Part shown: positions 6,092 through 21,301 of the stretch, in pieces | How positions within the stretch are numbered: position 1 is the stretch's first letter | Layout of the letters: every line of letters begins with the position of its first letter | Virus record (IMG/VR): IMGVR_UViG_2617270952_000002 | Location: 1 to 27,724 of that record | Origin: a virus | Lineage: Duplodnaviria > Heunggongvirae > Uroviricota > Caudoviricetes | Length of the DNA: 27,724 nucleotides | Strand: one strand, 5' to 3' | Position numbers and translations under genes: made by a program | The notes under the pieces: generated by a model | The model's database searches: none | What the model was told of the DNA's origin: nothing | The model's input: only the letters and a program-made list of their open reading frames with translations

Positions 6092-7123
6092 CTAATCGCC
6101 ATCTTCCAGCAGGCGCACCATTGCCCCTGTTTCACTATCCAGGTTACGGATATAGTTCATGACAATATTTACGTTGGTCCAGCCACCAGCTTGCATGATC
6201 TCCGGTATTGAAACTCCGGCGCGGGCCATATCTCGCGCGGCTCCGACACGGGCACTGTGTCCAGACCAGGCCAGGTATCTCTGACCAGAGTCATCCTTAG
6301 CGCCGTAAATCAATCGATGAGTTGCTTCAAAAATCCCTTCCAGGGCGCGAGTTGATAGCTGGCTGGTGGATGATGGCGCGGCAACACCATTTTTTCTGAC
6401 GCGGCAAAACAGGTAGTTATTCGGATCATCAGCTACACCAGAGACAGAAATCCATCGCTCAACCAGTTTAGTTACCCCTAGGCTAAGTGCCTTCTCTACA
6501 CCAGCGGTGCTAACCAGCGTTTTCGTTCTGCCAATATGGATTAACATTCTCCCACCGTCAGTACGTGAGATATCTTTAACCCTGATCCTGGAAATTTCGG
6601 CTATACGTAACAGGGTGTTATAAGCAATCCCCAGAAATGCCAGATTACGTATATCCTGGCAGCGCTCACTATTTTCCATGAGTGAACGAACCAGGTCGAA
6701 ATCAGTGCGTTCGAACGCCAGCGCCTGTTTTGCACGCTCACCGGCATCAACGTTTTCTTTTCGGATCCGTCGCATGACCAGTGAAACAGCATTGCTGTCA
6801 CTTGGTCGTGGCAGCCCGGACCGACGATGAAGCATGTTTAGCTGGCCCAAATGTTGCTGGATAGTTTTTACTGCCAGACCGCGCGCCTGAAGATATAGAA
6901 GATAATCGCGAACATCTTCAGGTTCTGCGGGAAACCATTTCCGGTTATTCAACTTGCACCATGCCGCCCACGACCGGCAAACGGACAGAAGCATTTTCCA
7001 GGTATGCTCAGAAAACGCCTGGCGATCCCTGAACATGTCCATCAGGTTCTTGCGAACCTCATCACTCGTTGCATCGACCGGTAATGCAGGCAAATTTTGG
7101 TGTACGGTCAGTAAATTGGACAT
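6092..7123 (-). CDS. cre: Cre site-specific tyrosine recombinase
   Basis: 343 aa MSNLLTVHQNLPALPVDATSDEVRKNLMDMFRDRQAFSEHTWK...; matches remembered P1 Cre almost throughout; loxP lies about 420 bp upstream. Confidence 0.97.
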   Translation of the reverse strand: MSNLLTVHQNLPALPVDATSDEVRKNLMDMFRDRQAFSEHTWKMLLSVCRSWAAWCKLNNRKWFPAEPEDVRDYLLYLQARGLAVKTIQQHLGQLNMLHRRSGLPRPSDSNAVSLVMRRIRKENVDAGERAKQALAFERTDFDLVRSLMENSERCQDIRNLAFLGIAYNTLLRIAEISRIRVKDISRTDGGRMLIHIGRTKTLVSTAGVEKALSLGVTKLVERWISVSGVADDPNNYLFCRVRKNGVAAPSSTSQLSTRALEGIFEATHRLIYGAKDDSGQRYLAWSGHSARVGAARDMARAGVSIPEIMQAGGWTNVNIVMNYIRNLDSETGAMVRLLEDGD

Positions 7124-7618: not shown

Positions 7619-7635
7619 AGAATTATTAGAGCAAT
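7619..7635 (-). promoter_or_regulatory. C1 operator
   Basis: agaattattagagcaat; 15/17 to rc consensus. Confidence 0.6.
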
Positions 7636-7694: not shown

Positions 7695-7722
7695 TTTGAC
7701 AATTGCTCTAATGAATTATAGT
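7695..7722 (+). promoter_or_regulatory. sigma70-like promoter (TTGACA-16-TATAGT) with embedded C1 operator 7702..7718, reading toward coi/c1
   Basis: ttgaca ATTGCTCTAATGAATTA tagt; operator 15/17. Confidence 0.65.
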
Positions 7723-7956: not shown

Positions 7957-8166
7957 ATGGCTTTCATTCAACCAACCATCGACGACGTTAGACATTGCTC
8001 TAACGCTTTATCTGTAGACCCTGCCGAAACCGACGCTGCCCGCGCCATTGCTGAACACTACTCAAAGATATCCAATCAGGAGTACCGCATCACCCAAGAC
8101 GACCTGGATGACCTCACTGACACAATCGAATATCTCATGGCAACTAACCAGTTAGACTCACAATAA
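7957..8166 (+). CDS. coi: Coi, C1 inactivator
   Basis: 69 aa, immediately upstream of c1; size and position as in P1 immC. Confidence 0.85.
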   Translation: MAFIQPTIDDVRHCSNALSVDPAETDAARAIAEHYSKISNQEYRITQDDLDDLTDTIEYLMATNQLDSQ

Positions 8167-8182
8167 ATGCACTAATAAATCT
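8166..8182 (+). promoter_or_regulatory. weak C1 operator-like site between coi and c1
   Basis: aatgcactaataaatct; 14/17. Confidence 0.35.
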
Positions 8183-8276: not shown

Positions 8277-9128
8277 ATGATAAATTATGTCTACGGCGAA
8301 CAACTGTACCAGGAGTTCGTCAGCTTCAGGGATCTCTTTCTAAAAAAAGCTGTTGCACGCGCCCAACACGTTGATACAGCCAGCGACGGTCGTCCTGTAC
8401 GCCCGGTTGTCGTTCTACCGTTCAAAGAAACTGACAGCATTCAGGCTGAAATTGATAAATGGACTTTAATGGCGCGGGAACTGGAACAGTACCCAGACCT
8501 CAATATCCCAAAGACTATTTTATATCCAGTGCCTAACATCCTTCGCGGTGTGCGTAAGGTTACAACTTATCAGACAGAAGCTGTGAACAGCGTCAACATG
8601 ACCGCTGGCCGCATTATTCATCTGATTGATAAGGACATTCGCATCCAAAAAAGCGCGGGGATCAATGAGCACAGTGCGAAATACATAGAGAACCTGGAAG
8701 CAACAAAAGAGCTAATGAAGCAGTACCCGGAGGATGAAAAATTCCGTATGCGCGTACACGGCTTTAGCGAAACAATGCTGCGCGTCCACTACATTTCCAG
8801 TAGCCCTAACTACAATGATGGTAAATCAGTTAGTTACCATGTGCCACTGTGTGGCGTGTTTATCTGCGATGAAACTCTCCGTGATGGAATTATCATCAAC
8901 GGTGAATTCGAAAAAGCAAAATTTAGCCTTTATGACTCCATAGAACCGATCATCTGCGACCGCTGGCCGCAAGCAAAAATATATCGCCTGGCAGATATTG
9001 AAAATGTAAAAAAACAAATTGCCATCACTCGCGAAGAGAAAAAGGTTAAGTCAGCCGCATCAGTTACGCGCAGCCGTAAAACCAAGAAGGGGCAGCCAGT
9101 AAACGACAACCCCGAAAGCGCGCAATAA
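8277..9128 (+). CDS. c1: C1 repressor of lysogeny
   Basis: 283 aa MINYVYGEQLYQEFVSFRDLFLKKAVARAQHVD...; matches remembered P1 C1. Confidence 0.95.
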   Translation: MINYVYGEQLYQEFVSFRDLFLKKAVARAQHVDTASDGRPVRPVVVLPFKETDSIQAEIDKWTLMARELEQYPDLNIPKTILYPVPNILRGVRKVTTYQTEAVNSVNMTAGRIIHLIDKDIRIQKSAGINEHSAKYIENLEATKELMKQYPEDEKFRMRVHGFSETMLRVHYISSSPNYNDGKSVSYHVPLCGVFICDETLRDGIIINGEFEKAKFSLYDSIEPIICDRWPQAKIYRLADIENVKKQIAITREEKKVKSAASVTRSRKTKKGQPVNDNPESAQ

Positions 9129-9160
9129 ATTATGCCCGGCATCAACCGGGCATTCTTCCA

Positions 9161-10279
9161 TTATTCAGCCGCCACCGGTTTTAACAAGCCAGCATCGAGC
9201 AGTTTACGCGTCAACCACTGCTGGCCTTTACCCGTTAATTGAGGCGTCAACCGTATCTGGTAGCCATCTTCATCATCCAGCACCACTTCTTTCACCGTGA
9301 AATACCCCGCGTTGATGTACTGCTGGAACGGCACATTTTTACGTCCACCGGACGCTATCAGGATGCCGTTCTCCCGTAACCAGACAAACAGCGCGTTTTG
9401 TTTAAGTCCAACAACCTTTGCAAAATTCCCAATCAGGATCCCTTTAGCTACTGATACCCGGTCGGCAAAATCGACTTTAGGAGCGGCGGCCACCAGCTGC
9501 TGATTTAGCTGGTGGGCTTTCTGTTCCAGAAGTTGCTTTTGTTCAGCCAGTTCGGCAGCCAGGCGTAGGGCTTCAGGAAGCGTCTGGGGGATTGCGATCG
9601 GTTGCTGTTCTTTTTGTCGGAAGTAGCTGTCTTCCAGTTTTTCAAAGAATGCCCATGCCTGATCGGTTTCGAGCATTTTAGCGTGGCGGGCTGCGCCGCG
9701 TTCTGTCCAGAGGGGGAGTGAGCGAACATTGCGAGCAATTTTTACAGAGTAGTTTAAAGCTACTCTGTGCTTCAACTCGCGCAATGATTCTCCTTCAACT
9801 TTGAAAAAGTGCTTCCCTTCAACAAAGCGTACTTTGTTCTCATGATGATTTTGGCGAATACGGATTGTTTCTGTCCCATACCCTCTAGCAAGAGTCTCGG
9901 TTGTCACTACACGCACTCCCTGCCATTCCAGAACGGGAATTTCATCAGACTGATTCTGAACAACCACCAGCTCCGATTCTTGAACTGAAGGTGCATGAAT
10001 TTTTTCTGATTTAACGTTAGTTGCTTTCATTCTGTGTGCCTCCTTGCGTGCTTCGGCTGCGGCGGTTGCGTAATTCAGATGACCCTGTTCGAGCAGGTAT
10101 TCGCGGATATCAGACAACAGGATACGGTGAACCGCGTTCTTGTCCTTTCTCCGGTAAAGTTGTTTGGTGATCATGAAGTAGTTGGCAATAACGCCTGGTA
10201 TATCCCTGGTACTGATACAGGCAGTGTGCTGTTCAATTGCCTCGATCATCTCTTCACGGGTGACTAATGACGTTCTCAT
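9161..10279 (-). CDS. phage antirepressor-like protein (ORF6N-like central domain, KilA-C/ANT-like C-terminal domain)
   Basis: C-terminal ...VSVAKGILIGNFAKVVGLKQNALFVWLRENGILIASGGRKNVPFQQYINAGYFTVKE... resembles ANT C-terminal domain; central FVEGKHFFKVEGESL...LWTERGAARHAKMLETDQAWAFFEKL resembles ORF6N. Confidence 0.7.
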   Translation of the reverse strand: MRTSLVTREEMIEAIEQHTACISTRDIPGVIANYFMITKQLYRRKDKNAVHRILLSDIREYLLEQGHLNYATAAAEARKEAHRMKATNVKSEKIHAPSVQESELVVVQNQSDEIPVLEWQGVRVVTTETLARGYGTETIRIRQNHHENKVRFVEGKHFFKVEGESLRELKHRVALNYSVKIARNVRSLPLWTERGAARHAKMLETDQAWAFFEKLEDSYFRQKEQQPIAIPQTLPEALRLAAELAEQKQLLEQKAHQLNQQLVAAAPKVDFADRVSVAKGILIGNFAKVVGLKQNALFVWLRENGILIASGGRKNVPFQQYINAGYFTVKEVVLDDEDGYQIRLTPQLTGKGQQWLTRKLLDAGLLKPVAAE

Positions 10280-10497
10280 AGTCCCTCCTGAGCAGAAGCG
10301 TTAACAGGGAGGCACCAGTAACTGAGAGAATTGCGTGAATCAGTGGAAAAACGGGCAGAGAAAATACATGGGGCGTCAGGAAGCTGAGAGCGGGCCTCAT
10401 CTTCTGTCGGTGCAATAACGAAGTGATAGTGACGTTTTTGGCAGGAGTAAAAGCGCCAGATAAATTCAGGATGAGTTGGGATAGGGATAGTAGCCAT
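10276..10497 (-). CDS. hypothetical 73-aa protein immediately upstream of and overlapping the antirepressor start (Icd-like position)
   Basis: ATG at 10497 preceded by AAGGAGG; stop overlaps the antirepressor ATG (ATGA). Confidence 0.45.
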   Translation of the reverse strand: MATIPIPTHPEFIWRFYSCQKRHYHFVIAPTEDEARSQLPDAPCIFSARFSTDSRNSLSYWCLPVNASAQEGL

Positions 10498-10557
10498 ATT
10501 GGCAGCCTCCTTAGACGTTGGTATGTAACCACCGCAGAAGAGACCAATCTTGCTGGC

Positions 10558-10633
10558 GGTGGACTGTACGGAGTTGGCCTTACTGGCGTCCAAGGTAACC
10601 AGCCTACCCGAAGGTAGCCCCATACAGCCCACC
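10558..10633 (-). ncRNA. candidate structured regulatory RNA (c4-like antisense RNA position)
   Basis: 14-bp RNA duplex possible between 10620..10633 and 10558..10571 that includes two G-U wobbles (pairs only as minus-strand RNA), enclosing a CUACC-UUCG-GGUAG tetraloop hairpin at 10604..10617. Confidence 0.3.
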
Positions 10634-10661
10634 ATTGTAGAGGTGTGCGTGTACGCCGATA

Positions 10662-10686
10662 CAAAAAAAAGACGCGAGCGGCGTCT
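10662..10686 (-). terminator. rho-independent terminator downstream of pacB
   Basis: Hairpin gacgc-gagcg-gcgtc at 10671..10685 followed on the minus strand by a run of 8 T. Confidence 0.6.
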
Positions 10687-10816
10687 GTATCGCCTTAGAC
10701 TTAAGCGGGAGGCCAATCCCGGCACCCGTTTTAATGAGGTGCCTGATAAGCATAAACCGAAAATGCCTCAAGGCGCAAGAGGTCAGGCTCAATGTAACAT
10801 CGGTAGTTAAAAAACA

Positions 10817-10833
10817 CAATTTATTAGAGCAAA
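10817..10833 (-). promoter_or_regulatory. C1 operator
   Basis: caatttattagagcaaa; 15/17 to rc consensus. Confidence 0.6.
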
Positions 10834-10836
10834 TAT

Positions 10837-12321
10837 TCATTCATTAAGCCATGCCAGAGCTTCATCAACCTGCGCTTCGTCTTCGACGCTAAGCACTTCA
10901 TCCTGGGGAACATAATCCGCCAGCATAGCGAAACAATATGTATCCCAATGGTCTGGTGAGTGCAGGTTGAGTTTTTTCTTCATATCCTCCTTACTCATCA
11001 CCTTCCATTGACCTGCGGAGTTAATCCCTACAGGGATTTTCGACGCTTCCTCAATAGTTTCATTACCCTTATCCAGTCTCATACGACCAGATTTTACGGC
11101 CTCTGCGGCTTGAACGTTGGCATAAGCACGTTTATCAAAGTACAGGCTCTTATCTTCACGGCTATGCATCTTTTTACCCCAGCGTATACGCTGTACGGTA
11201 ATACCATAATACTCGTACATCAGATCCGCCGTTGCTTTACCCAGGCCATCGCCGTCTATCGCTATGGTGATATTTGGGAATCGCTCAGGATTACATTCTG
11301 CGAAAATTTTGGCGGCAAGCTGCGTTTCTGTAACGTCTGTGTATTCCAGCATTCGATAGTTGATTACACGGCGTTTATTTCGCTGGCCGGACACCATCAT
11401 GATATTGATAACGGACTTATCCCGTCCCGTACCACCAGCAACGTCCACACATGCAAGCCAGCCCCATCCTTTGGCAATCTTGACTTTCCGCCGCGTTGCA
11501 CGTTCAACCTCATCACGTCCAAGAAGGAAGCCATCCTGTGATTTAGGGAATAGGCCGCGTACCTTAATCATGTACATAGGGTTATCACGCCCGCCGTACT
11601 CCGCCAGCTTCATTTTGATAAATGCTGGCGTTACCAACGGTGATTCCTCACTGTTAAGCGTGATCGCCGTATAAACGCCATCAGGGTTACCAGGACGCTT
11701 GGCCAGTTTATGGTGTGTATCGTAGAAATAGCCGCTTGGGCGTGTAGGCTGTGACAGCAATAAGATGCGGTTATCCTGTCCGGTAAGAGCACCGGTGATG
11801 ATACCGAAAGCTCTATCACTGACACCGGAGGCTTCATCGATAATATACAGAAGATGATCTGCGTGTTCACCGGCGAGAGCTTCTTCACTTCCCAGACGAA
11901 AGCCCTTCGGTACTACAGTCCATACACCTTTACCAGTAACCTCATAGAAAGCGGTTTCTGTCAGAACAAAATAATCAGCAAGCCATGGAAAACGGCTGGT
12001 GGCAGTAGCCCAGTTTATCTTGATGTACTTGAATATACCGGTCATTACCTGCTGAATTTTGTTCGCAACGATAATGGCGCGGGCACCGGGATACATGATT
12101 ATGAACAACATGATCATGATAGAAGTCATGTCTGATTTCCCGGTACCGTGACCAGACGAAACAGATGTCTTGCTACCCTGTTCCTGCACAGACTCAATAA
12201 TCAGATCCTGCTGCCAGGTAGGTGTTTTGCCGAACAAAACATCAGCGGCAGCAATCCAGTCATAACGATATAGCGCCACCAGCTCGCGCCAACGTGGATC
12301 CGTTACGCAACTTCTGGCCAT
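10837..12321 (-). CDS. pacB: terminase large subunit (PacB-like)
   Basis: 494 aa; Walker [10 protein letters not shown], Walker [12 protein letters not shown]; same length as remembered P1 PacB. Confidence 0.8.
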
Positions 12322-12903
12322 TAATCATCATCCCCGTATAGCTTGCGGGTAACTTCTTCGTCTTCCTCCTCGTCTTCGTCCAGGTCTTGTTCCAGCCATG
12401 GGTCGTTTGATACACCTTCAGTATCAACATCTCCATAACCGCCTGTATCAACGATATCGGCGATTTCTTCCCTACGCTGCTCAATCCACAATGCGGCATC
12501 GGCGCGGCGGTTGGCGGCCCGTTCTCGCGCAACTTTGTCCAGATCTTCAAGAGAAGGGCCACCGACGGCTGTTTGCCTTTCCTCATCATCGGTATTGGTC
12601 TTAGGAGCACGCAGATCGGCTTTGATTTGCTCCAGCATCAGGGGCGGCACTTTTCCGCCATGCGCCTCGATGAATTCAGCTGCTTCCAGCACTGACCAGT
12701 TATTTTCACGCTTTCGTTCGTAAGCGCAGATAAACATCGCGCTTATCGACATCCAGATGCGGGTATTCCTTTTCAAGAATTGCTGCGAGTTCTTTCGCTG
12801 ATAGAAGAGATTTAGTGCGGATCATGTAATCCGCAATCTCGTACGATGTTATTCGTGAGTGATTTATTTCCATGAAGTGGCGTCCCTGCCAGTTAAGTAA
12901 CAT
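12321..12903 (-). CDS. putative terminase small subunit / DNA-binding protein region, split over two frames (12706..12903 and 12321..12776)
   Basis: Two overlapping ORFs related by a +1 shift; acidic C-terminal tail DEDEEEDEE abutting pacB start; C1 operator upstream. Confidence 0.4.
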
Positions 12904-12973: not shown

Positions 12974-12990
12974 CAATACATTAGAGCAAT
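12974..12990 (-). promoter_or_regulatory. C1 operator
   Basis: caatacattagagcaat; 14/17. Confidence 0.5.
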
Positions 12991-15024: not shown

Positions 15025-16587
15025 ATGAAAATGACAAGTATTCAACAACGTGCAGAGCTTCATCGTCAAATCTGGCAAATTGCTAACGATGTCAGGGGTT
15101 CGGTCGATGGATGGGATTTTAAGCAATACGTTCTGGGCGCACTTTTCTACCGTTTTATCAGCGAAAATTTTTCCAGTTATATTGAAGCCGGTGATGACAG
15201 TATCTGTTATGCGAAACTGGATGACAGCGTAATTACTGATGACATTAAAGACGATGCCATCAAAACTAAAGGCTACTTCATCTACCCCAGTCAGCTTTTC
15301 TGCAACGTAGCTGCGAAAGCAAATACTAATGACAGACTGAATGCAGATTTAAACAGCATCTTCGTTGCTATCGAAAGTTCTGCTTACGGTTATCCTTCAG
15401 AAGCTGACATCAAAGGTTTGTTTGCTGATTTCGATACTACCAGTAACCGCCTGGGTAACACCGTTAAAGATAAAAATGCCCGCCTGGCTGCGGTTCTGAA
15501 AGGGGTTGAAGGGTTAAAACTTGGTGACTTCAACGAACATCAGATTGACCTGTTCGGTGACGCCTATGAGTTCCTGATTTCTAACTATGCGGCGAATGCC
15601 GGTAAGTCAGGCGGCGAGTTCTTTACACCGCAACACGTCTCTAAGCTGATTGCACAACTGGCTATGCACGGGCAGACCCACGTTAACAAAATCTACGACC
15701 CGGCAGCAGGATCCGGTTCGCTGTTGTTGCAGGCTAAAAAACAGTTTGATGACCATATCATCGAAGAAGGCTTTTTTGGTCAGGAAATCAACCATACAAC
15801 CTATAACCTGGCACGTATGAACATGTTTTTGCACAACATCAACTACGACAAGTTTGATATCAAGCTGGGTAATACACTGACTGAGCCACACTTCAGAGAT
15901 GAAAAACCGTTTGATGCCATCGTTTCTAACCCGCCGTATTCGGTGAAATGGATTGGCAGCGATGACCCGACGCTGATTAACGATGAACGTTTTGCCCCGG
16001 CTGGCGTTCTGGCCCCCAAATCCAAAGCTGACTTTGCGTTTGTATTACATGCGCTGAACTATCTTTCTGCCAAAGGTCGTGCTGCGATTGTTTGCTTCCC
16101 GGGTATTTTTTACCGTGGCGGCGCGGAGCAGAAAATCCGTCAGTATCTGATTGACAATAACTATGTCGAAACCGTAATTTCACTGGCACCGAACCTGTTC
16201 TTTGGCACCACCATTGCAGTAAACATTCTGGTTCTGTCCAAACATAAAACGGATACCAACGTTCAGTTTATTGACGCCAGCGAACTGTTCAAAAAAGAGA
16301 CTAACAACAATATCCTGACCGATGCCCATATCGAACAGATTATGCAGGTATTTGCCAGCAAGGAAGATGTTGCTCATCTGGCGAAATCTGTCGCGTTTGA
16401 GACCGTTGTTGCTAATGACTATAACCTGTCGGTGAGCAGCTATGTGGAAGCGAAAGATAACCGCGAAATTATCGATATTGCTGAGCTGAATGCTGAGCTG
16501 AAAACCACGGTCAGCAAAATCGACCAGTTGCGCAAAGATATTGATGCGATTGTGGCTGAAATTGAAGGCTGCGAGGTGCAGAAATGA
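15025..16587 (+). CDS. hsdM: type I restriction-modification system methyltransferase subunit HsdM
   Basis: 520 aa; AdoMet motif DPAAGSGS and catalytic NPPY. Confidence 0.95.
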
Positions 16588-17798
16588 GCGAGATGAGTTA
16601 TCTGGAAAAATTGCTGGATGGGGTTGAAGTTGAGTGGTTGCCATTGGGGGAAATAACCAAATATGAACAGCCAACAAAGTATTTGGTAAAAGCAAAAGAT
16701 TATCACGACACATATACCATACCGGTTCTTACTGCCGGAAAAACATTTATTCTTGGATACACAAATGAGACTCATGGTATTTATCAGGCATCAAAGGCAC
16801 CTGTAATAATTTTTGATGATTTCACCACCGCTAATAAATGGGTGGATTTTGACTTTAAGGCAAAATCATCGGCCATGAAAATGGTTACATCATGTGATGA
16901 TAATAAAACCTTACTGAAATATGTTTACTATTGGCTCAATACATTACCAAGTGAATTCGCAGAGGGAGACCATAAACGCCAATGGATTAGTAATTATTCT
17001 CAAAAAAAAATCCCAATCCCCTGCCCGGATAATCCGGAAAAATCCCTTGCCATCCAGTCTGAAATCGTTCGGATTCTGGATAAATTTACTGCACTTACCG
17101 CTGAGCTTACCGCTGAGCTTAACATGCGTAAAAAACAGTACAACTACTATCGCGACCAGTTGTTGAGTTTTAAAGAGGGTGAGGTTGAGTGGAAGACTTT
17201 GGGAGAGATCGGAAAATGGTATGGGGGAGGGACACCATCAAAAAATAAAATTGAATTTTGGGAAAATGGAAGCATTCCATGGATTTCCCCGAAAGATATG
17301 GGCCGAACACTTGTAGACTCTTCGGAAGACTATATAACTGAGGAGGCTGTTCTACAATCGTCAACAAAACTGATTCCAGCAAACTCGATTGCAATCGTTG
17401 TTCGCTCAAGCATATTGGATAAAGTATTACCAAGTGCATTAATAAAAGTACCTGCTACGCTCAATCAAGATATGAAAGCAGTCATTCCTCATGAAAACAT
17501 CTTGGTTAAATATATTTATCATATGATTGGGTCTAGGGGGAGTGATATTCTGCGAGCAGCGAAAAAGACAGGAGGGTCCGTAGCTTCTATTGACAGTAAA
17601 AAATTATTTTCATTTAAAATTCCGGTTCCTAACATCAATGAACAACAACGAATTGTCGAAATACTCGACAAATTCGACACACTGACTAACTCCATCACCG
17701 AAGGTCTTCCGCGTGAAATCGAGTTGCGCCAGAAACAATACGAGTACTATCGTGATTTACTGTTCAGTTTCCCGAAACCTGAAACTGTCAGTAATTAA
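16584..17798 (+). CDS. hsdS: type I R-M specificity subunit HsdS (type IC-like, TAEL repeat in central conserved region)
   Basis: 404 aa; two target-recognition domains separated by ...[23 protein letters not shown]...; overlaps hsdM stop. Confidence 0.9.
17094..17117 (+). repeat. 2x tandem 12-bp repeat (cttaccgctgag) encoding TAEL-TAEL in hsdS
   Basis: Direct tandem duplication read in sequence. Confidence 0.85.
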
Positions 17799-17919
17799 TT
17801 GATCATTGCTACCGATCGGACCACCTTAACACCCGGTCAGTATATAGACTATTTTTTACGCGCCGGAAGTCACCATTACCCCCCTTCCGGCCCTTGCCAG
17901 ACGGCACAAAGGATGCGCT

Positions 17920-20900
17920 ATGACTCATCAGACACACACCATTGCTGAATCCAATAACTTTATCGTTCTTGATAAGTACATCAAAGCTGAGCCAACAGGC
18001 GACAGCTACCAGAGCGAATCGGACCTGGAACGCGAACTGATACAGGACCTACGGAATCAGGGCTATGAATTTATATCCGTAAAATCACAGTCGGCGATGC
18101 TGGCCAATGTTCGGGAACAGCTTCAGAACCTCAATGGTGTGGTGTTTAATGACAGCGAGTGGCGGCGTTTCACGGAGCAGTATCTGGATAACCCGAGCGA
18201 TGGCATTCTGGATAAGACCCGTAAAATCCATATCGACTATATTTGCGACTTTATTTTTGATGACGAGCGTCTTGAGAACATCTATTTGATAGATAAAAAG
18301 AATCTCATGCGCAATAAGGTGCAGATTATCCAGCAGTTTGAACAGGCGGGTTCTCACGCTAACCGTTATGACGTAACTATCCTGGTTAATGGCTTACCGC
18401 TGGTACAAATCGAACTGAAAAAACGCGGCGTGGCGATTCGTGAGGCTTTCAACCAGATACATCGTTACAGTAAAGAGAGTTTTAACAGCGAAAATTCCCT
18501 GTTTAAGTATCTGCAGCTGTTCGTCATTTCCAACGGCACTGATACCCGTTATTTTGCCAACACGACAAAGCGCGATAAAAACAGTTTTGACTTCACCATG
18601 AACTGGGCGAAATCAGACAATACGCTGATTAAAGACCTCAAAGACTTTACCGCCACCTTTTTCCAGAAACATACTCTGCTTAATGTTCTGGTGAACTACA
18701 GCGTTTTTGACAGCAGTCAGACACTACTGGTAATGCGACCGTACCAGATTGCCGCCACCGAGCGCATTCTGTGGAAAATTAAGAGTTCCTTTACAGCGAA
18801 GAACTGGTCAAAACCGGAAAGCGGTGGGTATATCTGGCACACTACCGGTTCTGGTAAAACCCTCACCAGCTTTAAAGCCGCGCGTCTGGCAACAGAGCTG
18901 GACTTTATTGATAAAGTCTTCTTTGTGGTCGACAGGAAAGACCTCGATTACCAGACCATGAAGGAATATCAGCGTTTTTCGCCAGACAGCGTCAACGGCT
19001 CGGAAAATACCGCAGGCCTTAAACGAAATCTGGATAAGGACGATAACAAAATTATCGTCACTACTATTCAGAAACTCAATAACCTGATGAAAGCAGAAAG
19101 CGATCTGCCTGTATATAATCAGCAAGTGGTGTTTATATTTGATGAATGCCACCGCAGCCAGTTTGGAGAAGCGCAGAAAAACCTGAAGAAGAAATTCAAA
19201 CGCTATTATCAGTTTGGTTTTACCGGCACCCCTATTTTCCCGGAAAACGCCTTAGGCTCAGAAACAACCGCCAGCGTATTTGGTCGTGAATTGCATTCGT
19301 ATGTAATTACCGATGCGATTCGTGACGAAAAAGTGCTCAAATTCAAGGTGGACTACAACGATGTGCGGCCACAGTTTAAGTCTTTAGAGACAGAAACTGA
19401 CGAGAAAAAACTGAGTGCGGCTGAAAATCAGCAGGCGTTTCTTCATCCCATGCGTATTCAGGAAATCACGCAATATATTCTGAATAATTTCCGCCAGAAA
19501 ACCCACCGTACCTTCCCTGGCTCAAAAGGTTTTAATGCTATGTTGGCAGTGAGCAGCGTGGATGCCGCGAAAGCCTATTATGCGACGTTTAAACGGTTAC
19601 AAGAAGAAGCCGCTAATAAATCGGCTACCTATAAACCGCTGCGTATTGCGACAATCTTCTCCTTTGCCGCCAATGAAGAACAAAATGCCATTGGTGAAAT
19701 TTCCGATGAAACTTTTGATACCAGCGCAATGGACAGCAGTGCTAAAGAGTTTCTGGACGCTGCAATTCGTGAATATAACAGCCATTTTAAAACTAACTTT
19801 AGCACCGACAGTAACGGTTTTCAGAACTACTATCGTGATTTAGCCCAGCGGGTTAAAAATCAGGATATCGATCTGCTAATTGTCGTGGGGATGTTCTTAA
19901 CCGGCTTCGATGCTCCAACATTGAACACGCTATTCGTCGATAAAAACTTACGTTATCACGGCCTGATGCAGGCATTTTCCCGCACCAACCGCATTTATGA
20001 CGCCACTAAAACCTTCGGTAATATCGTCACTTTCCGGGATCTGGAACGCTCAACTATTGATGCCATAACGCTGTTTGGTGACAAAAACACCAAAAATGTG
20101 GTGTTAGAAAAGAGTTATACAGAGTATATGGAAGGCTTTACTGATGCTGCTACAGGTGAAGCTAAACGCGGCTTCATGACAGTAGTTTCAGAACTGGAAC
20201 AACGGTTCCCTGACCCTACCAGTATTGAAAGTGAAAAAGAGAAGAAAGACTTCGTTAAACTGTTTGGCGAATACCTGCGTGCCGAGAACATCCTGCAAAA
20301 CTATGATGAATTTGCCACGCTAAAAGCCCTGCAACAAATCGATCTTAGCGATCCTGTTGCGGTAGAAAAATTCAAAGCAGAACATTATGTGGATGATGAA
20401 AAGTTCGCTGAATTGCAAACAATTCGTCTCCCTGCTGATCGCAAGATTCAGGATTATCGTTCTGCCTATAACGATATTCGCGACTGGCAGCGCCGTGAGA
20501 AAGAAGCTGAGAAAAAAGAGAAATCAACCACTGACTGGGATGACGTAGTTTTTGAGGTCGATTTGCTGAAGTCTCAGGAAATAAACCTGGATTATATCCT
20601 TGGACTGATTTTCGAACACAACAGACAAAATAAAGGCAAGGGCGAAATGATCGAAGAGGTCAAACGCTTAATTCGTTCAAGCCTGGGAAACCGTGCTAAA
20701 GAGGGCCTGGTGGTCGATTTTATTCAGCAAACGAACCTGGATGATTTACCGGACAAAGCCAGCATCATTGACGCATTCTTTACGTTTGCTCAACGCGAAC
20801 AGCAACGTGAAGCAGAAGCATTGATAAAAGAAGAAAATCTCAATGAAGATGCAGCAAAACGCTATATTCGCACGTCTTTAAAACGCGAATATGCCACCGA

Positions 20901-21036
20901 AAATGGCACAGAATTAAACGAAACATTACCAAAACTTAGTCCGTTAAATCCGCAATATAAAACGAAAAAACAGGCAGTTTTCCAGAAAATCGTCTCGTTT
21001 ATTGAGAAGTTTAAAGGCGTAGGCGGAAAAATATAG
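17920..21036 (+). CDS. hsdR: type I R-M endonuclease/translocase subunit HsdR
   Basis: 1038 aa; PD-(D/E)xK-like IELKK, Walker A TGSGKT, DEAH-like FDECH. Confidence 0.95.
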
Positions 21037-21284: not shown

Positions 21285-21301
21285 ATATTTATTAGAGCAA
21301 T
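21285..21301 (-). promoter_or_regulatory. C1 operator
   Basis: atatttattagagcaat; 16/17 to rc consensus. Confidence 0.65.

Follow-up and report, generated by a model that had tools for sequence, protein, structure and literature searches.

A probable second immI-type immunity module in the pacB-c1 spacer of a P1-like phage-plasmid

Phage P1 serves as a textbook model, and there is growing recognition that P1-like phage-plasmids carry resistance genes. Among the best described regulatory units of P1 is the immunity region immI, made up of c4, icd, and ant. The C4 antisense RNA of P1 is an experimentally defined RNA of 77 nt, the 5′ end of which is generated by RNase P. According to the P1 annotation, this RNA has two sets of targets, a1/b1 upstream and a2/b2 downstream, to which it pairs through a bulge (a′) and a loop (b′); b2 overlies the ribosome-binding site of icd. 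The dependence of the antirepressor gene ant on icd also involves Rho-dependent polarity in P1. The immI region occupies 48.1-49.7 kb of the P1 genome, in the interval from sim to kilA-repL, and c1 is found at 93.2-94.1 kb, where only 24 bp separate it from the convergent gene pacB. Here we analysed a stretch of 27,724 nucleotides from a virus of the Caudoviricetes (IMG/VR record IMGVR_UViG_2617270952_000002), which is a 27.7-kb segment of a P1-like phage-plasmid. This whole stretch is hereafter called the window, and all coordinates follow its numbering. Between its pacB and c1 genes we found a unit with the organization of immI.

This locus is very probably a second, complete immI-type immunity module of the P1-like phage-plasmid, placed at the site of the pacB-c1 spacer of P1. 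The gap between pacB (10837-12321, minus strand) and c1 (8277-9128, plus strand) measures 1708 bp in the window, against 24 bp in P1, and the similarity to P1 ends exactly at the stop codon of pacB on one side and at the stop codon of c1 on the other. The insert (9132-10836, minus strand) stands in place of the 24-bp spacer and presents the elements of immI in their order along the minus strand: an operator-like site, a1/b1 with a terminator, C4, a2/b2, icd, and ant. The module therefore sits between pacB and c1, and not between sim and kilA-repL. The original prediction, made from the letters of the sequence and a list of open reading frames (ORFs), had proposed a c4-icd-ant architecture for this place, and the RNA family, the target complementarity, the Icd and Ant homology, the gene overlap, the Ant2 start, and the operator match all support it. 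Its statement that immI of P1 lies far from immC was also correct, and the P1 reference, with its short pacB-c1 spacing, indeed differs from the arrangement seen here. The extent that it had given, 9161-10686, holds the core of the unit but not its limits. Upstream, the unit reaches to about 10836 and includes the isrK-like a1/b1 element and the operator; downstream, it includes a GC-rich hairpin at 9132-9153 (no strand assigned) between the stop codons of ant and c1. Of the 9 bp in its stem, 6 are G-C pairs, and on the minus strand AATTTATT comes after the stem; the hairpin probably terminates both of the convergent genes, ant and c1, as a bidirectional terminator.

The C4 antisense RNA gene was located at 10552-10639 (minus strand) by its match to Rfam family RF01695 (75.9 bits against a gathering score of 45, E 2e-13). 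By analogy with the 77-nt C4 of P1, the mature RNA is predicted at about 10555-10633. The minimum free energy of the fold is −41.6 kcal/mol (z = −3.5), and the structure is that of the family, with b′ (CCTTGGAC, 10588-10595, minus strand) in the loop of hairpin 2 and a′ (AGGCCAA, 10574-10580, minus strand) in an unpaired bulge. Compensatory changes were observed in 16 of the 24 stem pairs when eight homologues were compared. What the original prediction had described as a highly structured leader can thus be given a name, as a C4 antisense RNA.

The targets of this RNA are present on both sides of it. In the icd leader, the target sites span 10506-10547 (minus strand) in the layout annotated for a2/b2 of P1: a2 (TTGGTCT) is at 10541-10547 and b2 (GTCTAAGG) at 10509-10516, where it overlaps the icd Shine-Dalgarno sequence AAGGAGG (10506-10512). 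Upstream of c4, a second copy at 10693-10716 on the same strand consists of a1 (TTGGCCT, 10710-10716) and b1 (GTCTAAGG, 10693-10700). The composite motif TTGGYCT-N5-35-GTCYAAGG occurs three times in the window, each time at this locus (two copies are the targets and one is the complement within C4), and in none of 100 shuffles. The duplex between b′ and b2 comprises 9 bp, including one G-U pair, with an energy of −13.9 kcal/mol, and that between a′ and a2 comprises 7 bp with −8.6 kcal/mol; the corresponding values for the upstream copy are −11.3 kcal/mol for a′-a1 and −12.4 kcal/mol for b′-b1.

The upstream pair of targets is part of an IsrK-like element with an intrinsic terminator (10665-10742, minus strand). 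It scores 60.8 bits with the isrK model (RF01394), above the gathering score of 50, with model positions 1-77 matched and both the terminator stem and the U-tract present; in the terminator (stem at 10670-10686, minus strand), a run of 8 U comes after a GC-rich stem of 6 bp. The model c4-a1b1 (RF03163), described as “a1, b1 targets of C4”, matches the same 10665-10742 interval with 20.5 bits, below its threshold. The reverse outcome was obtained with the a1/b1 region of P1 itself, which scores 51 bits with c4-a1b1 and 35 bits with isrK. Because the scores of the window and of P1 mirror each other, the two models describe elements of one kind. Relatives of P4 CI and seqA are known to be picked up by the models for C4 and isrK (PMC10111431).

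Downstream of C4, the icd homologue (10276-10497, minus strand) encodes an Icd-like cell-division inhibitor of 73 amino acids (aa) that is 80% identical to P1 Icd and matches NCBIfam NF033153 (phage_ICD_like, 49.8 bits). Its Shine-Dalgarno sequence AAGGAGG lies 8 nt ahead of the ATG, and its stop codon overlaps the start codon of ant as ATGA. By analogy with P1, icd is probably also the translational coupler required for ant expression. The ant1 homologue (9161-10279, minus strand) encodes a protein of 372 aa that shares 55% identity with P1 Ant1 along its whole length and contains the Pfam domains ANT/KilAC (E 6e-31) and ORF6N (E 6.5e-19). The two ends are those of the P1 protein, namely, about 85 aa at the N-terminus and about 150 aa at the C-terminus (KilAC/ANT), the latter being about 90% identical, whereas the central third of P1 Ant1 is swapped for the ORF6N domain. 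The internal, in-frame start of Ant2 is retained at codon 84 (ATG at 10028-10030, minus strand), with AAGGAGG ahead of it and a context, AAGGAGGCACAYAGAATG, that is almost identical to P1. Both genes had been read correctly in the original prediction, as a 73-aa ORF with a strong Shine-Dalgarno sequence that overlaps an antirepressor-like gene.

At the upstream end, a C1-operator-like site (TTTGCTCTAATAAATTG, 10817-10833, minus strand) begins 3 nt past the pacB stop codon. It matches the consensus ATTGCTCTAATAAATTT at 15 of 17 positions and aligns with the annotated P1 operator Oc4/Op51 in the same relative position, so that the upstream C1 operator expected by the original prediction is present as a candidate site. 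A scan of the window for the consensus, with up to three mismatches, returned 10 sites, against 0.18 expected. The segment at 10743-10816 (minus strand) is a putative promoter region, the equivalent of P1 P2c4/P1c4 judging by its positional homology to the annotated P1 promoters. The ten operator sites are spread over 5580-27066 and include one with a single mismatch (21285-21301), two near lox and cre (7619-7635 and 7702-7718; cre itself is at 6092-7123, minus strand), and one before c1 (8166-8182). Another, at 12974-12990, is the counterpart of Olpa and lies upstream of a truncated lpa.

The comparison with immI of P1 and P7 therefore reveals a shared order of elements, the same strand logic, the same Rfam C4 family, a b2 site over the icd Shine-Dalgarno sequence, and a C1-operator-like site upstream. 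The size and sequence of Icd, the ATGA overlap, and the Ant2 start at codon 84 with its AAGGAGG are common to them as well. The differences, besides the location and the central third of Ant, concern the RNA and its targets. The a1/b1 segment of the window, of the isrK type and with a strong terminator, is 37-39% identical to that of P1 and P7, and the a′/b′ pairing sequences are AGGCCAA/CCTTGGAC in the window, CTGTCAA/TCACTAAC in P1, and CTGCTAA/TCACAATC in P7.

That such a module can be an addition to the usual immI is seen in its relatives. NZ_CP027133.1, the closest full-length relative, shows 99.9% identity across the locus and 96-99% across most of the window. It carries the c1-adjacent module plus a canonical c4-icd-ant beside kilA-repL, with two separate C4 matches. 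The canonical C4 of this plasmid has CTGCTAA as a′ and TCATTCGT as b′ and is unrelated to the C4 of the window type; because their pairing sequences are unrelated, the two RNAs are predicted not to cross-react. In the phages RCS47, JL22, and vB_EcoM-673R5, the module is found at the identical pacB-c1 site, and each of these elements has one Ant-like locus more than P1. The original prediction had suggested “a rearranged or second immunity region”. The co-existence of both modules in NZ_CP027133.1 upholds the word “second” and not the word “rearranged”, and a relocation of immI was rejected on these grounds and on the extra Ant-like loci of RCS47, JL22, and 673R5 relative to P1. A simple duplication of the resident immI was rejected too, as the leader is 34-53% identical to those of P1, P7, and the canonical immI.

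The leader has closer relatives elsewhere. The a1/b1 and a2-b2 segments of the window are 59-79% identical to those of D6, RCS47, and JL22, versus 34-41% to those of P1, P7, and the canonical immI. The modules of D6, RCS47, and JL22 have the same layout of isrK-type leader, C4, icd, and ant; that of D6 adjoins ref and not a c1 gene. In addition, chromosomal P4-like satellites have almost the same C4 scaffold and a site as the window and differ only in b′, b1, and b2, which again covary. Since only the icd and ant ends are P1-like and the leader is D6- or satellite-like, the unit is a mosaic, in which a horizontally exchanged specificity cassette is linked to icd and ant ends of the P1 kind. 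Satellites of the P4 kind (integrase, AlpA-type regulator, AntA/AntB, and primase) with a window-like C4 were observed in the chromosomes of E. coli ETEC1731 and O157:H7 E32511. The stems and a′ of their C4 are near-identical to those of the window, and their b′ loops differ, with b1/b2 matching. It is conceivable that the shared a site allows partial cross-talk between satellites and P1-like plasmids.

The specificity of C4 was compared in seven aligned modules: the window, the second-site modules of RCS47 and JL22, immI of P1 and P7, the canonical immI of NZ_CP027133.1, and D6. From module to module, the sequences of a and b vary, and they covary at all three places (a′/a1/a2 and b′/b1/b2). 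RCS47 has GTCTCAA/CCTTTGAC as a′/b′. JL22 and D6 share both GTCTCAA/CCTTTTGC and the targets, and their C4 genes are one stem base apart. When duplexes were computed without constraints, cognate b′-b2 pairs had energies of −11 to −14 kcal/mol and most non-cognate pairs −1 to −8 kcal/mol, the exceptions being b′ of RCS47 on the window target (−10.0 kcal/mol) and JL22 and D6 on each other (−12.4 kcal/mol, with b′/b2 shared). The loop and bulge of the window C4 pair with their own a1/b1 and a2/b2 and show no pairing with the sites of P1, P7, or the canonical immI of NZ_CP027133.1. Because the C4 pairing sequences differ, the window and canonical modules are predicted to be orthogonal, and an orthogonal C4 would provide the element with a second immunity and anti-immunity specificity.

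Variation among the second-site modules is also unevenly distributed. They are 93-100% identical in almost every 60-column bin, including the flanks, icd, and most of ant when RCS47, JL22, and 673R5 are compared with the window, and the operator region is conserved at 97-98%. Two patches are excepted. One is the segment 10500-10720, which holds a1/b1, C4, and a2/b2 and is 35-75% identical; divergence focused in the RNA and its targets is the pattern expected of an immunity-specificity determinant. The pacB-c1 site hosts no fewer than three C4 specificities, namely, those of the window, RCS47, and JL22 types. The other patch, 9720-9900 (minus strand), corresponds to Ant residues ~127-187 within ORF6N, where the window, RCS47, and JL22 share 42-68% identity. 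It may be either a surface for partner recognition or a mosaic produced by recombination. A side observation was made in NZ_CP074805.1 (54071-61533), where the pacB-c1 gap holds a leader, C4, and 5′ part of icd of the window type fused to a segment of the simA region. The fusion continues into a c4-icd-ant of the canonical type, the C4 of which is a hybrid with a′ of P7 and b′ of P1. The sequence of this plasmid provides evidence that two immI copies recombine with each other.

By analogy with the regulation of P1 immI, summarised in PMC8546580, we infer the promoters, the read-through of the terminator, the processing of the RNA, the translational and Rho-dependent coupling of icd and ant, and the action of Ant on C1. 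Transcription would begin downstream of the C1-operator-like site and pass through a1/b1, a leaky terminator, C4, a2/b2, icd, and ant, and C4 would be excised from this operon transcript. Its b′ and a′ would then pair with a2/b2 on transcripts of the same kind. Since b2 covers the icd Shine-Dalgarno sequence, icd would remain untranslated when C4 is bound, and, as ant would need icd translation because of the ATGA overlap, neither Ant1 nor Ant2 would be made in the lysogen. If C4 were limiting or absent, both Icd and Ant would be produced, and Ant would counteract the C1 repressor. Such a shortage could be met on infection of a cell that lacks this type of C4, or it could arise from titration of C4 by the short a1/b1 (IsrK-like) RNA. 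Papers by Citron, Heinrich, and Schuster reportedly give a further basis for this immI mechanism.

Two other systems are similar in part. The isrK-orf45-anrP locus of Gifsy-1 in Salmonella shares with the window a terminated element of the IsrK family, a structured RNA, a short ORF, and a coupled antirepressor. In Gifsy-1, read-through of the IsrK terminator yields the mRNA, and the short IsrK RNA activates translation of orf45-anrP in trans (Hershko-Shalev et al. 2016, PMC4825925). The stable downstream RNA of that locus, STnc1160, was likened to P4 CI, and a CI-like role in termination could not be demonstrated (PMC4825925). In the window, by contrast, the RNA downstream of the element is clearly a C4, and the short ORF encodes an Icd homologue. 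A decoy role of the a1/b1 transcript is plausible by analogy; activation of translation in trans and Hfq binding by an isrK RNA are known from Gifsy-1 only. The immunity system of P4 (seqA - CI RNA/seqB - seqC) and the C4/Icd cassettes found in P4-like satellites and in PICIs (chromosomal islands that phages can induce) fall in the same Rfam clan. However, CI of P4 ends transcription of the replication operon prematurely, unlike the translational block of icd-ant, and P4-like satellites have primase and replication genes after the cassette, where the window has Ant.

Several observations weigh against a second, complete immI in this element. The window ends short of the position of the canonical immI; the second copy is established in relatives, and “second” for this element accordingly rests on them. 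A strong intrinsic terminator (6-bp stem and 8 U) stands between the a1/b1 element and C4, and the pairing of C4 with its targets includes one G-U pair in a′-a2 and likewise in b′-b1/b2. At the upstream end, the 15/17 operator match is at the homologous position, but no convincing promoter was predicted: a simple sigma-70 consensus scan of the coding strand found no strong promoter, and the best candidates read by hand, TTGTGT-17-TACATT and TTGCGC-18-TATGCT, each agree with 7 of the 12 consensus hexamer positions. The ORF6N middle of Ant is related to Roi/Ant proteins of lambdoid phages and, as it replaces the centre of the protein, the target of Ant could be other than C1. Finally, the window element is without the 3′ part of lpa, pac, and the 5′ part of pacA, and may be unable to go lytic; if lytic growth is impossible, antirepression would lead to nothing productive in this very element.

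The most serious competitor accepts the regulatory part as proposed and changes the role of its product: Ant would be a Bro/Roi/KilAC-type antirepressor that spares the C1 of its own element and acts in trans on the repressors of other resident prophages or satellites (prophage cross-talk), or mainly a vehicle for division inhibition by Icd. We consider this unlikely, though several observations favour it. Residues ~94-367 of Ant, with the ORF6N middle, are about 59-63% identical to Roi/AntB of lambdoid and Shiga toxin (Stx) phages, the leader cassette is nearest to D6 and chromosomal P4-like satellites and not to P1 immI, and the 180-bp hypervariable patch of ORF6N among second-site modules is as expected of a partner-recognition surface. 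A target in other prophages nevertheless fits poorly with the N-terminal 85 aa specific to Ant1, with the Ant2 start and Shine-Dalgarno sequence kept from P1, and with the C-terminal 150 aa at about 90% identity. Moreover, the upstream C1-type operator ties the unit to the C1 circuit, and the module is found beside c1 in hundreds of P1-like plasmids. That the module is an inert remnant of recombination, hitch-hiking DNA without a present function, seems the least probable of the readings considered, even with the lpa-pacA gap of the window element and with ant frameshifted or interrupted by insertion sequences (IS) in some relatives. All ORFs and RNA elements of the window module are intact, more than 100 plasmids of unrelated host and country of origin carry the module with 99% conservation, and the complementarity between antisense and target is kept in each of the three divergent specificity types.

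The remaining reading concerns the leader, which could code for an Ash-family protein, or the segment 10276-10725 could be one protein of 149 aa with the Icd C-terminus. Indeed, an ORF is open from a GTG at 10725 through C4 into icd, the Pfam profile hidden Markov model (HMM) Phage_ASH (PF10554) matches the translation across C4 (10498-10725, minus strand) with 39.1 bits against a cut-off of 26, and in identical plasmids RefSeq places an “ash family protein” gene or pseudogene there. Conservation of the frame is lacking, however: stop codons flank C4 on both sides in RCS47, JL22, and D6, and in P1, whose C4 is the RNA defined by experiment, a stop lies inside the loop. The substitutions compensate in the stems and covary with distant targets, which a protein reading leaves unexplained, and icd has its own strong Shine-Dalgarno sequence and ATG. 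With the frame broken in four elements and the substitutions following RNA pairing, a conserved protein-coding ORF was rejected in spite of the HMM match, and we regard the coding reading as highly improbable. Because of the broken frames, matches to Phage_ASH at C4 loci may be translated RNA, and the Pfam family most likely reflects translation of a conserved RNA. The same “ash family protein” labels were seen over C4 in P4-like satellites.

The surroundings of the module are those of P1, with some departures. Beyond pacB, the window contains phd/doc, a type I restriction-modification system, and further P1 genes. The restriction-modification operon (15025-21036, plus strand), downstream of phd/doc, encodes HsdM (520 aa), HsdS (404 aa), and HsdR (1038 aa). 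Part of hsdS (~16640-17660) could not be aligned to NZ_CP027133.1, a plasmid that is otherwise 97-98% identical, and this divergence suggests a different target-recognition specificity. Compared with P1 and the closest plasmid, 1134 bp are absent within window positions 12700-12780 (junction at 12721-12736, with flanks sharing 16 bp). The gap removes 270 nt from the 3′ end of lpa and the initial 780 nt of pacA, together with the late promoter LPpac and the site of pac cleavage. An element with this gap should fail at late-gene activation and DNA packaging, unless the gap is an assembly artefact. The junction was found as one piece in no PLSDB or complete E. coli record, and three records have a similar version that is ~49 bp longer.

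The pacB-c1 arrangement is common in sequenced P1-like plasmids. At least 80% of a 1.8-kb query was found in one place in 268 PLSDB records, compared with 315 records with an uninterrupted P1-type pacB-c1 junction, and the leader plus icd is present in 260 of 5426 complete E. coli genomes. The arrangement has already been noted briefly in print, as an ant insertion between pacB and c1 mentioned by Venturini et al. 2019 (PMC6906374). In the literature library that was searched, no paper was found that recognises in the insert a complete c4-icd-ant with a specificity of its own, and the locus is not discussed in the JL22 paper (PMC9603915). RefSeq uses the names “Icd-like” and “antirepressor KilAC” for the two genes; with current annotation pipelines, C4 itself goes unannotated and the RNA is called an “ash family protein” pseudogene.

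From a biological perspective, roughly four in ten sequenced P1-like plasmids would carry an extra immI unit (268 versus 315 PLSDB records) and, because the extra unit is so frequent, the P1 reference under-represents the immunity circuitry of the group. It is possible, although we hold this only tentatively, that the second module is an independent immunity channel, with a specificity segment swapped among P1-like plasmids, D6-like plasmids, and P4-like satellites. If so, two orthogonal C4/Ant pairs would shield a lysogen from the Ant anti-immunity of more superinfecting relatives, and a phage that carries both could break the immunity of lysogens with a single C4 type. The terminated a1/b1 transcript, made from a C1-sensitive promoter, might titrate C4 as a decoy, and a drop in C1 would then be amplified into Ant synthesis, as a positive-feedback switch adjoining c1. 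A second orthogonal pair would bear on how P1-like elements co-exist with or displace each other and on what triggers their induction, and also on their dealings with D6-like plasmids and with the P4-like satellites that use the same RNA scaffold.

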